DNA of 64,000 nt from NCBI RefSeq assembly GCF_045037415.1, contig NZ_CP173438.1; one strand, given 5' to 3'. Shown here piece after piece: positions 40,346 through 44,849 of the stretch. Below the pieces are notes generated by a model. The model did not search any database, was not told the DNA's origin, and worked only from the letters and a program-made list of their open reading frames with translations. Both the position numbers and the translations under genes were made by a program. The DNA is from Escherichia coli (lineage in GTDB: Bacteria; Pseudomonadota; Gammaproteobacteria; Enterobacterales; Enterobacteriaceae). The first letter of the stretch is position 1. Every line of letters starts with the position of its first letter.

Positions 40346-43078
40346 GTGAATTTAACCCTGACCCGAAGACTCTGGATGGGCTTTGCCCTGATGGCGCTGT
40401 TAACCCTGACCAGTACCCTGGTGGGATGGTACAACCTGCGCTTTATCAGCCAGGTGGAAAAAGACAACACTCAGGCATTGATTCCTACCATGAATATGGC
40501 GCGCCAGTTGAGCGAAGCCAGCGCCTGGGAACTTTTCGCCGCGCAGAACCTGACCAGTGCCGATAACGAAAAGATGTGGCAGGCGCAGGGGCGAATGCTC
40601 ACCGCACAAAGTCTGAAGATTAATGCGTTGCTGCAAGCGTTACGGGAACAAGGTTTTGACACCACCGCTATTGAACAACAGGAGCAGGAGATCTCCCGTT
40701 CGTTACGTCAGCAAGGGGAACTGGTGGGGCAGCGTTTGCAACTTCGCCAGCAACAACAGCAACTCAGTCAGCAGATAGTCGCCGCCGCCGATGAAATCGC
40801 ACGCCTGGCGCAAGGTCAGGCGAATAATGCGGCAACCTCCGCCGGAGCGACCCAGGCCGGGATTTACGATTTGATCGAACAACATCAGCGTCAAGCCGCA
40901 GAAAGTGCACTCGATCGGCTGATTGATATCGATCTTGAGTATGTTAACCAGATGAATGAACTGCGCCTTAGCGCCCTGCGGGTGCAGCAAATGGTGATGA
41001 ATCTGGGGCTGGAACAGATCCAGAAAAATGCGCCAACGCTGGAAAAGCAGCTCAATAATGCGGTGAAAATTCTGCAACGTCGGCAAATACGCATTGAAGA
41101 TCCGGGTGTTCGTACTCAGGTAGCAACAACGTTAACTACCGTTAGCCAATATAGCGATTTGCTGGCGCTGTATCAGCAGGACAGTGAAATCAGCAATCAC
41201 CTGCAAACTCTCGCCCAAAATAACATCGCCCAATTCGCGCAGTTTAGTAGCGAAGTCAGTCAGCTGGTCGACACCATTGAGCTGCGTAATCAGCACGGGC
41301 TGGCTCATCTGGAAAAAGCCAGTGCACGCGGGCAATACAGCCTGTTATTGCTGGGATTAGTTTCTCTTTGCGCACTGATTCTGATCCTCTGGCGCGTGGT
41401 TTATCGCTCAGTCACGCGCCCTCTTGCAGAACAAACGCAGGCGCTGCAACGCTTGCTGGATGGTGATATCGACTCCCCTTTCCCGGAAACCGCTGGCGTA
41501 CGGGAACTGGATACCATCGGGCGGCTGATGGATGCGTTTCGCAGCAGTGTTCATGCACTGAATCGCCACCGCGAACAGCTGGCGGCGCAGGTCAAAGCGC
41601 GTACAGCTGAATTGCAGGAACTGGTGATAGAACACCGACAGGCACGGGCGGAAGCAGAAAAAGCCAGCCAGGCAAAATCGGCGTTTCTGGCGGCGATGAG
41701 CCATGAGATCCGCACACCGCTGTACGGTATTCTCGGCACCGCACAGCTGCTGGCAGATAACCCCGCACTTAACGCCCAGCGCGATGATTTGCGGGCGATT
41801 ACCGACTCTGGTGAATCGTTGCTGACCATCCTCAACGATATTCTCGATTATTCGGCTATCGAAGCAGGCGGCAAGAATGTTTCGGTCAGCGATGAACCCT
41901 TTGAACCGCGCCCGCTGCTGGAAAGTACCCTGCAATTAATGAGCGGAAGGGTGAAAGGTCGCCCGATTCGCCTGGCAACAGAAATTGCCGACGATGTACC
42001 GACTGCGTTAATGGGCGATCCGCGGCGTATTCGTCAGGTCATTACCAACCTGTTGAGCAACGCCCTGCGTTTCACCGACGAAGGGCACATTATTCTGCGT
42101 AGTCGCATTGATGGCGAACAATGGCTGGTCGAAGTGGAAGACAGCGGCTGCGGTATTGATCCCGCGAAACTGGCTGAAATCTTCCAGCCATTTGTTCAGG
42201 TTAGCGGCAAACGCGGCGGCACCGGGCTGGGGCTGACTATCAGTAGCCGTCTGGCCCAGGCGATGGGCGGCGAATTGAGCGCCACCAGCACGCCGGAGGT
42301 TGGAAGCTGTTTTTGTTTACGCGTGCCGTTACGTGTTGCCACTGCACCCGTGCCAAAAACAGTCAATCAGGCGGTGCGTCTGGACGGTTTACGTTTGCTG
42401 TTAATTGAAGATAACCCGCTAACCCAGCGGATTACCGTTGAGATGTTGAACAGCAGTGGGGCGCAGGTCGTTGCCGTAGGAAATGCCGCGCAGGCTTTAG
42501 AGACACTGCAAAATAGTGAACCGTTTGCTGCCGCACTGGTGGATTTTGATCTACCGGATATCGACGGCATTACGCTTGCCCGACAACTGGCACAGCAATA
42601 TCCGTCGCTGGTTTTGATTGGCTTTAGCGCCCATGTCATTGACGAAACACTGCGACAGCGTACCAGTTCGCTATTTCGCGGGATTATCCCTAAACCGGTG
42701 CCGCGTGAAGTGCTCGGTCAATTACTGGCGCACTATCTCCAACTGCAAGTCAATAACGATCAACCACTGGATGTATCGCAACTCAATGAAGATGCTCATT
42801 TAATGGGGGCGGAGAAGATCCACGAATGGCTGATATTATTTAAACAACATGCCCTGCCGCTTCTCGATGAAATCGACATTGCCCGCGCCAGTCAGGATAA
42901 CGAGAAAATAAAGCGTGCCGCACATCAGCTAAAAAGCAGTTGCTCGAGTCTGGGAATGCGTAGCGCCAGCCAGCAATGCGCACAACTGGAGCAGCAGCCA
43001 TTATCTGCCCCCCTTCCACACGAAGAAATTACACGCAGTGTTGCCGCTCTGGAAGCATGGTTAATAAGAAAGACCTGA
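40346..43078 (+). CDS. torS: Hybrid sensor kinase TorS; start uncertain
   Basis: ORF track starts at 40139 and overlaps torT; start set at GTG 40346 ([13 protein letters not shown]…); alternative ATG at 40376; HAMP, HisKA/ATPase, receiver and HPt domains. Confidence 0.85.
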
Positions 43079-43160
43079 ACGCGATTTGAATCAATATCAG
43101 CCAGTTAAGAACAACTAGAATAGTGGCATTTGGTATGCAACTTAACGGACTGGCAAAATC

Positions 43161-44234
43161 ATGGCAGAGAAAAAAAGAACCCGCTGGCAACGGCGGCCAG
43201 GCACGACGGGCGGCAAATTACCGTGGAATGACTGGCGCAATGCCACGACCTGGCGTAAAGCGACGCAATTATTACTGTTGGCAATTAATATTTATATTGC
43301 CATCACGTTCTGGTATTGGGTGCGCTATTACGAAACGGCAGGTAGTACGACATTTGTCACCAGACCGGGTGGTATCGAAGGCTGGCTACCGATTGCCGGT
43401 CTGATGAATCTGAAATATAGCCTTGCAACAGGTCAGTTACCGTCCGTCCACGCCGCCGCGATGCTGTTATTGGTCGCTTTTATCGTCATCAGTCTATTAC
43501 TCAAAAAGGCCTTTTGTTCATGGTTATGCCCGGTTGGTACGCTTTCGGAATTAATCGGCGATCTCGGTAACAAACTGTTTGGTCGGCAATTTGTCCTTCC
43601 CCGCTGGCTGGATATTCCTCTGCGCGGCGTGAAGTATTTGCTGTTGAGTTTTTTTCTCTATATCGCGTTATTGATGCCCGCTCAGGCGATTCACTATTTT
43701 ATGTTGTCGCCCTACAGCGTGGTGATGGACGTTAAAATGCTCGATTTCTTTCGTCATATGGGGACCGCGACATTAATCAGCATGATCGTTTTGCTGATTG
43801 CCAGCCTGTTTATTCGCCATGCCTGGTGTCGTTATCTTTGCCCATATGGCGCGCTGATGGGCGTGGTTTCGCTATTATCGCCGTTTAAGATTCGTCGCAA
43901 TGCCGAAAGTTGTATCGATTGTGGCAAATGCGCAAAAAGTTGCCCATCACGGATCCCGGTCGATAAATTAATTCAGGTACGAACAGTGGAATGTACCGGC
44001 TGTATGACTTGCGTAGAGTCATGTCCGGTAGCCTCAACATTGGCCTTTTCACTGCAAAAACCTGCGGCAAATAAAAAAGCCTTTGCGTTGTCTGGCTGGT
44101 TAATGACGCTACTGGTTATGGGGATTATGTTTGCGGCGATTGGTTACGCAATGTATGCGGGAGTATGGCAAAGCCCGGTGCCGGAGGAATTGTACCAACG
44201 CTTAATTCCGCAATCGCCAATGATTGGTCACTAA
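43161..44234 (+). CDS. yccM: NapH/MauN-like polyferredoxin membrane protein YccM
   Basis: 357-aa ORF; two CxxCxxCxxxCP motifs (CIDCGKCAKSCP, CTGCMTCVESCP) and two CxxxCP motifs (CSWLCP, CRYLCP). Confidence 0.85.
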   Translation: MAEKKRTRWQRRPGTTGGKLPWNDWRNATTWRKATQLLLLAINIYIAITFWYWVRYYETAGSTTFVTRPGGIEGWLPIAGLMNLKYSLATGQLPSVHAAAMLLLVAFIVISLLLKKAFCSWLCPVGTLSELIGDLGNKLFGRQFVLPRWLDIPLRGVKYLLLSFFLYIALLMPAQAIHYFMLSPYSVVMDVKMLDFFRHMGTATLISMIVLLIASLFIRHAWCRYLCPYGALMGVVSLLSPFKIRRNAESCIDCGKCAKSCPSRIPVDKLIQVRTVECTGCMTCVESCPVASTLAFSLQKPAANKKAFALSGWLMTLLVMGIMFAAIGYAMYAGVWQSPVPEELYQRLIPQSPMIGH

Positions 44235-44282
44235 ATTAGCAACAAGCGGAACATCACCTCGCACGGGGTGATGTTCACAAAA

Positions 44283-44456
44283 TCACATTATTTTGATTTT
44301 GACATCATAACTTTCAAGCCCGGTCATTTTTTCTCGTGCGGTGAAGCGAATTTCAGAGACTTCTTTCCCTGTATTCTTGTTCAGCTCGGCGATTTTTTGC
44401 GCGATAAAGTCGGCGATTTCCGTTTCGGCTTGTTTTTTTAACTCTTCAATATTCAC
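44283..44456 (-). CDS. gnsA: Small protein GnsA, GTG start
   Basis: Reverse-strand translation VNIEELKKQAETEIADFIAQKIAELNKNTGKEVSEIRFTAREKMTGLESYDVKIKIM, 57 aa; not in ORF track. Confidence 0.75.
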   Translation of the reverse strand: MNIEELKKQAETEIADFIAQKIAELNKNTGKEVSEIRFTAREKMTGLESYDVKIKIM

Positions 44457-44676
44457 TGTTAACCTCTTCTGGTCTTAAAAGACAGCAACACGCCAGTAAG
44501 GTGTTGGTTCCCGGTACCCTGGTCAGGTAAGAAATGTTATAAGCCATCTCCCCGAAAGATTCAATAATCAACAGGTTATCGCTTACTATACATACAGCGT
44601 TGAAGAAAAATAAGGCAGATATAAAAAAGGCTCCACGAGGGAGCCTGATATTATTTTGTGAAATCCAGCGGCGCAT
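44446..44676 (-). CDS. ymcE: Dubious small ORF YmcE
   Basis: 76-aa frame MRRWISQNNIRLPRGAFF…; a strong terminator-like hairpin lies inside its 5' end. Confidence 0.35.
   Translation of the reverse strand: MRRWISQNNIRLPRGAFFISALFFFNAVCIVSDNLLIIESFGEMAYNISYLTRVPGTNTLLACCCLLRPEEVNSEY
44621..44645 (-). terminator. Probable rho-independent terminator of the cspG transcript
   Basis: Stem ggctcc/ggagcc with 5-nt loop followed on minus strand by T-run (plus-strand A-run 44622-44628). Confidence 0.5.
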
Positions 44677-44849
44677 GGTCAGTGCGTATTTGCAGCGCAA
44701 CGTTATCAAAGGTGATCATCGTCGATTTACAAAAAATGCACTTTGCACCCAAAGGGTTTCGCTCCGTCACATCGAATGCCGATGTGCGGTACTGTGAACC
44801 ATGGCAACATGGACAGCGGAAATGGAGATGTTGAGTAATAACGGCAACC

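Follow-up and report, generated by a model that had tools for sequence, protein, structure and literature searches.

yccM, the gene downstream of torS in Escherichia coli, as a probable NsrR-controlled electron-transfer gene of N-oxide stress

The gene yccM of Escherichia coli encodes an iron-sulfur membrane protein of the NapH/NosR/CcoG superfamily and lies directly downstream of torS in the stretch of DNA analysed here (the window; 64,000 nucleotides of RefSeq contig NZ_CP173438.1). Based on its control region, its protein sequence and the surroundings of its relatives, we propose that YccM is probably a stand-alone protein under NsrR control that transfers electrons during N-oxide stress, which we consider the best explanation, and that yccM is very likely independent of Tor. 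The gene belongs to the E. coli core and has no assigned function, and its current labels conflict, namely 'electron transport', 'sulfur relay' and 'CcoG homologue'. The gene, its motif content and the binding of NsrR are already known; new here are a clear negative on the functional link to tor, the conservation of the NsrR operator across Enterobacterales, and the location of relatives in other lineages among N-oxide stress genes. Combined with published stress phenotypes, the conserved operator and the N-oxide neighbours lead to the testable hypothesis that YccM acts in nitrosative-stress physiology.

The gene and its control region comprise the following features.

43161-44234, plus strand: yccM coding sequence, with an ATG start, 357 amino acids and a stop, taken from the open reading frame list; RefSeq label 'yccM: 4Fe-4S binding protein'
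43079-43160, plus strand: torS-yccM spacer, 82 bp here and 71 bp in K-12, strongly conserved among Escherichia species
43121-43143, no strand assigned: NsrR operator TAGTGGCATTTGGTATGCAACTT, an 11-1-11 palindrome ending 17 nt upstream of the ATG and identical to the published site
43116-43121, plus strand: TAGAAT, a putative -10 hexamer that abuts the NsrR site and is invariant in six Escherichia sequences

NsrR, the nitric oxide (NO)-sensing repressor of the Rrf2 family, has been reported to bind between torS and yccM in strain CFT073 by chromatin immunoprecipitation sequencing, at the site TAGTGGCATTTGGTATGCAACTT, and the same report recounts yccM as an NsrR target also in K-12, as detected by chromatin immunoprecipitation on microarrays (PMC5320621). 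In the window this sequence occurs once. A position matrix derived from 14 other published NsrR sites, with the yccM site left out, scores 43121-43143 at 16.4 bits, the top position in all 64 kb. The runner-up, TCGATTTACAAAAAATGCACTTT at 44722-44744 (12.2 bits), falls within the coding sequence of ymcF and is probably a chance match.

The operator is also found well beyond E. coli. When 48 Enterobacterales loci were scanned from -300 to +30 of yccM at a threshold of at least 12 bits, an NsrR-like site was present upstream of the gene in 38; the background, per 330 bp, is 0.012 matches over all sequence and 0.055 in non-coding sequence. In most loci the site is the best of the whole 11 kb, and the sites span five or more promoter contexts that differ in the genes upstream, at the following positions relative to yccM.

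Escherichia and C. amalonaticus: -40
C. freundii group: -100
Providencia: -39, TAATGGTATTTAAAATGCATGTT
Pragia, Budvicia and Limnobaculum: about -170
Pectobacterium and Samsonia: about -120

Conservation across such different promoter contexts argues that the NsrR operator of yccM is functional, and we infer that NsrR represses the gene.

The spacer holds a further conserved block, TTGAATCAATATCAG at 43084-43100, which overlaps the torS stop and is near-invariant in six Escherichia sequences despite variable flanking torS codons (14 of 15 positions invariant, with one sequence off at one base); it resembles a pair of FNR half-sites with the wrong spacing. Expression of yccM has been reported to rise 5.7-fold after ciprofloxacin in the enterohaemorrhagic E. 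coli strain EDL933, where the gene was grouped with SOS genes (PMC11125564). Neither a CTG-N10-CAG element nor a near-consensus LexA site was found around yccM, and direct control by LexA was therefore rejected, the induction by ciprofloxacin probably being indirect.

A second line of evidence comes from gene neighbourhoods. We surveyed 79 orthologous yccM loci from 19 taxon groups, which were searched for the neighbouring proteins of the window. No gene family accompanies yccM in more than three taxon groups, and no ferredoxin or NapG-like partner was found near it across the 79 loci, so that yccM is a solo gene. The original prediction had noted the lack of a NapG-like partner in the window, and this is borne out by a six-frame scan of open reading frames of at least 60 amino acids, in which YccM is the sole frame with a CxxCxxCxxxCP motif in 64 kb. 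Of the 23 Acidobacteriota loci, 12 have one or more of the genes for a Crp/Fnr regulator, a hemerythrin, a YtfE/RIC protein and a quinol-type NO reductase (qNOR), distributed as follows.

Crp/Fnr-family regulator: 8 loci
181-amino-acid hemerythrin, directly downstream: 6 loci
ScdA_N plus hemerythrin protein (YtfE/RIC type): 5 loci
TIGR04053 radical-SAM protein: 4 loci, only alongside the hemerythrin
Quinol-type NO reductase NorB: 3 loci

In a Providencia metagenome-assembled genome (MAG), a ytfE equivalog (355 bits against a cut-off of 254) immediately follows yccM; a relative of YccM with 45% identity is encoded by a gene that overlaps the start of nrfH-nrfA, with NrfH and NrfA both passing their equivalog cut-offs; and the gene of a 40%-identical relative lies after that of an Rrf2-family regulator. 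As ytfE, norB and nrfA are typically single-copy, their recurrence in different arrangements within a few kb of yccM relatives looks well above chance, judged without a computed background rate. The N-oxide gene neighbours suggest the same direction as the NsrR site, though the associations are not universal.

Other observations from these neighbourhoods stand apart. A search for FNR/DNR boxes upstream of the Acidobacteriota yccM orthologues returned none, and a 445-amino-acid membrane protein encoded nearby, NnrS-like by eye, has no Pfam or NCBIfam match and was left uncounted. Citrobacter loci of the C. freundii group (L061, 3341-4780, and ten more) have, immediately upstream of yccM, a gene for a DosC-like globin-coupled diguanylate cyclase, a gas-sensing haem protein with Protoglobin, DosC_2nd and GGDEF domains. 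The YccM-like gene lies between parAB and atp in beta-proteobacterial MAGs (L051, L055, L056, L058 and L059), and in a marine MAG (L096-L097) it converges on atpC and follows an aconitase gene; a functional link to the ATP synthase operon was rejected, this nearness probably being a positional effect near parAB/gid.

Several points weigh against placing yccM in the N-oxide stress response. A convincing NsrR site was not found in three Enterobacterales lineages, i.e. Entomohabitans, Symbiopectobacterium and a contig labelled Serratia; the 23 Acidobacteriota loci are related MAGs and not 23 independent events; among the more distant relatives of YccM, six of eight neighbourhoods are uninformative; and in E. 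coli itself ytfE is not adjacent to yccM. A scan for sigma-70 promoters and terminators across 42800-44500 called none in the torS-yccM spacer, where a good -35 element is missing. Because neither a terminator nor a stable structure separates the two genes (RNA fold z-score of the spacer 0.11, not significant), read-through from torS into yccM is possible. In CFT073, the reported enrichment of NsrR at yccM is modest (2.24-fold), yccM is outside the 19 NsrR-bound genes whose expression is given as changing by over 1.5-fold in RNA sequencing with a physiological source of NO, and the authors of that study regard some NsrR sites as bound yet not regulatory (PMC5320621). Weighing these points together with the evidence above, we lean towards YccM belonging to the N-oxide stress response.

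The protein itself is predicted to combine a membrane module with cytoplasmic iron-sulfur clusters, as outlined by the following features.

43266-43829, plus strand: membrane module with transmembrane helices TM1-TM4, residues ~36-223, from hydropathy, lysine plus arginine (K+R) counts, AlphaFold2 helices and invariant columns in 54 orthologues
43515-43532, plus strand: first CxxxCP motif, CSWLCP, residues 119-124, at the cytoplasmic end of TM2, invariant in the 54 orthologues and also present in NapH
43827-43844, plus strand: second CxxxCP motif, CRYLCP, residues 223-228, at the cytoplasmic end of TM4, from the motif scan, the NapH alignment and the columns of the 54 orthologues
43911-43946, plus strand: first [4Fe-4S] ferredoxin motif, CIDCGKCAKSCP, residues 251-262, from the motif scan and Pfam
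43992-44027, plus strand: second [4Fe-4S] ferredoxin motif, CTGCMTCVESCP, residues 278-289, from the motif scan and Pfam
44076-44231, plus strand: TM5 (residues ~306-336) and the 21-residue periplasmic tail WQSPVPEELYQRLIPQSPMIGH, from hydropathy, AlphaFold2 and orthologue conservation

All 12 cysteines of YccM fall within the four motifs, i.e. two CxxxCP and two CxxCxxCxxxCP, and none of 20,000 shuffles of the protein yields even one copy of the latter. Pfam detects two Fer4_5 modules (8e-24) and a 4Fe-4S dicluster domain. Binding of [4Fe-4S] clusters by YccM is inferred from these motifs. Hydropathy reveals five hydrophobic segments (about 36-55, 91-125, 154-182, 196-223 and 306-336), and the K+R counts along the connecting regions, 10/2/6/2/12/1, form a positive-inside pattern from which the N terminus, the ferredoxin domain and both CxxxCP motifs are predicted to be cytoplasmic and the final 21 residues periplasmic. 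AlphaFold2 modelling with the 54 orthologues (mean per-residue confidence, pLDDT, 79; predicted template modelling score, pTM, 0.78) gave helices that agree with the hydropathy segments, with TM5 modelled as a helix at 312-333. YccM is thus predicted to be a five-helix inner-membrane protein with an N-in/C-out topology and cytoplasmic clusters. Several elements are particular to its clade: the first periplasmic loop, RPGGIEGWLPIAGLMNLKY, with an almost invariant RPxGIEGWLPIAGLMNLKY in the 54 orthologues, and a conserved N-terminal RRPGTxGGKxPWxDxRN segment. In the tail, W336 is invariant, while P341, P350 and H357 are at least 90% conserved. The predicted periplasmic face carries invariant M82, H97 and M193 together with near-invariant H357.

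YccM had initially been read as a NapH/MauN protein on account of the two CxxxCP and two CxxCxxCxxxCP motifs. The motifs are confirmed and align with those of E. coli NapH (b2204), to which YccM is a true homologue (30% identity over 216 amino acids, E 1e-19); membership in the family was overstated, as YccM reaches 93.5 bits against a cut-off of 213 with the NapH/MauN subfamily model TIGR02163. With the NapH equivalog model NF007013 the score is 96.4 bits against 234, aligning profile positions 26-278 of 286, and these two models are the best for YccM in NCBIfam, both under cut-off. The NosR model NF046105 gives 77.5 bits against 1000, over model positions 481-661 of 680 only, and the CcoG model TIGR02745 gives 34.7 bits against 316.7. 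Nine more distant YccM-like proteins (31-52% identity) likewise score below cut-off, with 63-100 bits in the NapH/MauN test, and an exhaustive search returned 341 representatives of 50% clusters at E<=1e-30 and 8242 at E<=1e-3. As YccM lies below the curated cut-offs for NapH/MauN, NosR and CcoG, it forms a separate, uncurated branch of the NapH/NosR/CcoG superfamily, similar to these proteins in its domains yet outside every named family, and judged by sequence it is nearer to NapH than to CcoG. We know of no solved structure from this branch.

Mutant phenotypes have been published as well. The yccM mutant of the Keio collection is reported to be thermosensitive, with complementation by plasmid (PMC5828445), and hypersensitivity of a yccM mutant has been reported for blue light and for four single stressors, including oxidant stresses (PMC10782963, PMC11673782). 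These phenotypes fit a stress-related respiratory or redox role and are not specific to such a role.

The location of yccM beside the tor locus had suggested an anaerobic electron-transfer function, and in its explicit form this alternative holds that YccM is an accessory electron-transfer component of trimethylamine N-oxide (TMAO) respiration, co-expressed with torS or controlled by Tor. In agreement with it, yccM is on the same strand as torS, whose stop at 43078 is 82 bp 5' of yccM, the lack of a terminator or stable structure in between would permit co-transcription, and the torS-yccM order is retained in E. coli, E. albertii and E. whittamii. Conservation of the gene neighbourhood had been suggested as a check, and it speaks against the link: torS is upstream of yccM in only 4 of the 79 loci, all from Escherichia. 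In many Citrobacter species and in Intestinirhabdus, cbpA-cbpM lie directly upstream of yccM and tor genes are missing, while the E. coli order has the tor block separating cbpM from yccM; in Providencia, Pragia, Pectobacterium and others the neighbours of yccM are unrelated to tor. In Escherichia sp. E1V33 (locus L010, 3068-6074), an internal deletion begins inside torD and ends close to the 3' end of torS; cbpA-cbpM, a remnant of torD, the final ~140 bp of torS, the promoter region with the NsrR site and an intact yccM of 357 codons are retained. A scan of the window for TorR decamer boxes located them solely in the torR-torC spacer (38489-38551), with none near yccM, which has its own NsrR operator. 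TorC already serves as the menaquinol dehydrogenase for TorA, so that a NapH-like step would be unneeded. The Escherichia-only adjacency and the tor-less yccM loci lead us to take the position next to torS as a lineage-specific accident, uninformative on function, and we regard a Tor-linked role as very unlikely. A tempting but wrong functional guess is thereby removed. The sulfur relay for tRNA 2-thiouridine, of which YccM might be a component, has even less in its favour, and we give it next to no chance: the label stems from the thermotolerance screen of Murata et al., who list yccM under 'sulfur relay system' and report thermosensitivity for yccM and tus mutants alike (PMC5828445), and tusC (yheM) and yccM are both in the reported blue-light hypersensitive set. 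However, the label is a database pathway assignment and not an experiment, no Tus, Mnm or rhodanese gene is beside yccM in any lineage surveyed, tusE lies ~13 kb away in the window, and the same screens recover atp, cyd, rfa and dnaK mutants, i.e. they represent general stress-fitness sets.

Two further alternatives concern the chemistry of YccM. It could be a CcoG-like metal reductase that acts at the membrane on Cu(II), yielding Cu(I), or on a different metal ion via its two [4Fe-4S] clusters and CxxxCP motifs, as does CcoG of Rhodobacter capsulatus. A review names YccM a CcoG homologue without the C-terminal Ig-like domain and describes CcoG as carrying two [4Fe-4S] clusters and two Cu sites (PMC7558416). 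This likeness fits the extra transmembrane helix that follows the ferredoxin domain in both proteins and puts the C terminus outside, and the conserved methionines and histidines on the predicted periplasmic face are a further point in its favour. Against it, YccM scores far lower with the CcoG model than with that of NapH (34.7 against 96 bits), a FixG_C/Ig-like domain is lacking, copper-homeostasis or cbb3-oxidase genes occur in 0 of about 90 neighbourhoods, and the regulatory site is for NsrR and not for a copper sensor. We consider such a reductase unlikely, if worth keeping in mind, and it is compatible with membership in the NO regulon. Alternatively, YccM could be a spare NapH, i.e. a quinol dehydrogenase whose partner is a periplasmic ferredoxin from another locus, for instance NapG. 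Among curated models NapH is indeed the closest, with an alignment over almost its whole length and the same motif set, and napG is encoded elsewhere in E. coli. The score far under both the equivalog and the subfamily cut-off, the absence of a NapG-like gene near yccM in any lineage surveyed, and the clade-specific periplasmic elements of YccM that NapH lacks all speak against it, as does the pairing of napG with napH in an overlapping operon, ~1.2 Mb from yccM in K-12; we therefore consider this reading improbable.

For the preferred N-oxide stress role, we propose the following mechanism. YccM would be a stand-alone inner-membrane polyferredoxin with two [4Fe-4S] clusters and a paired CxxxCP site directed towards the cytoplasm. 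NsrR, sitting across the likely -10 and start region of yccM, would repress the gene, and this repression is expected to be lifted in nitrosative stress. YccM would then move electrons between the quinone pool, or a membrane-surface cysteine site, and a cytoplasmic acceptor during nitrite/NO stress. This proposal builds on the analogy with NapH, a quinol dehydrogenase, and CcoG, with its cluster-mediated reduction of a cytoplasmic-side substrate, from which both the quinone link and the nature of the acceptor are extrapolated. The leading candidate acceptors are the di-iron protein YtfE/RIC and the hemerythrins, although we name a specific acceptor with low confidence. A bolder and rather doubtful extension is that the YccM clade represents a distinct, cross-phylum group of N-oxide-stress membrane reductases that pass electrons from the quinone pool, at the cytoplasmic face, to di-iron repair and detoxification proteins sharing their regulation or location (YtfE/RIC and hemerythrins), with the clade-specific periplasmic loop and tail forming a quinol or sensing site. 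If true, YccM would be the physiological reductant that YtfE/RIC and hemerythrins currently lack. If the N-oxide stress role is confirmed, the NO response would gain a membrane component for electron transfer, and a function would be assigned to an uncharacterised branch of the NapH/NosR/CcoG superfamily.

The local map supports the identity of the gene. YccM of the window is 96% identical to K-12 b0992, the segment 43000-44400 has 100% DNA identity to several complete E. coli genomes, where it is annotated as torS, yccM and gnsA, and the yccM region is matched in 5415 of 5426 complete E. coli genomes. The gene order is torD-torA-torC (minus strand), torR (plus), torT (minus), torS (plus), yccM (plus) and gnsA-ymcE-ymcF-cspG (minus). 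One further feature lies between the convergent yccM and gnsA.

44249-44276, no strand assigned: G+C-rich hairpin of 12 bp, from folding analysis

With a minimum free energy of -20.2 kcal/mol and a z-score of -6.8, equalled by 0 of 200 shuffles, this hairpin probably marks the transcript end for both genes. It has no T-run, and the terminator scan of 42800-44500 therefore missed it. At the 3' end of torS (43060-43089), a 1-bp deletion relative to K-12, from GGTTGCATAAG to GGTT-AATAAG, replaces the C-terminal residues ...EAWLHKKDLNAI of TorS with ...EAWLIRKT, the stop shifting from 43089 to 43078; RefSeq labels torS as 'frameshifted' in the identical strain SK1144. As for other mentions of yccM, PMC13170351 refers to an antisense transcript, 'yccM-as', that has an A-to-I editing site. 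The gene name is also used loosely, with NapH genes labelled yccM: a Haemophilus parasuis 'yccM', reported as biofilm-induced and two locus tags from napC, is probably NapH (its sequence was unchecked) and was not used as evidence. Literature searches with NapH, NsrR and polyferredoxin terms gave nothing on YccM, and 'b0992' returned no relevant paper.

Comparisons to known systems place YccM as follows. With NapH it shares two Fer4_5 membrane modules, each ending in CxxxCP, and a cytoplasmic C-terminal dicluster ferredoxin domain. It differs in having neither a NapG partner nor a nap context, in adding TM5 and the conserved periplasmic tail, before which the NapH alignment stops, and in its longer, conserved first periplasmic loop and conserved N-terminal RRPGTxGGKxPW segment. 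With CcoG/FixG/RdxA, represented by the R. capsulatus cupric reductase, it has in common the membrane location, the superfamily and two [4Fe-4S] clusters, in YccM predicted from motifs, as well as a transmembrane helix after the ferredoxin domain and a C terminus in the periplasm, for YccM again a prediction (K+R of 12 before and 1 after residues 306-336). In contrast to CcoG, YccM lacks the Ig-like periplasmic domain, with no FixG_C/Ig-like Pfam match and 21 residues after TM5, and a ccoGHIS/cbb3 context was not seen around yccM in any locus examined. The C-terminal half of NosR/NirI-type NosR is the same NapH-like module as YccM, which is without the large N-terminal periplasmic flavin-binding part and without a nos/nir context. 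From the core NsrR regulon (ytfE, hcp-hcr, hmp and nrf), yccM differs in not being listed as responsive in one RNA-sequencing test and in having no known role as an NO detoxification or repair enzyme. With these genes it shares the 11-1-11 operator near the start codon and NsrR binding in vivo, and relatives of YccM elsewhere adjoin ytfE, hemerythrin, qNOR and nrfHA.

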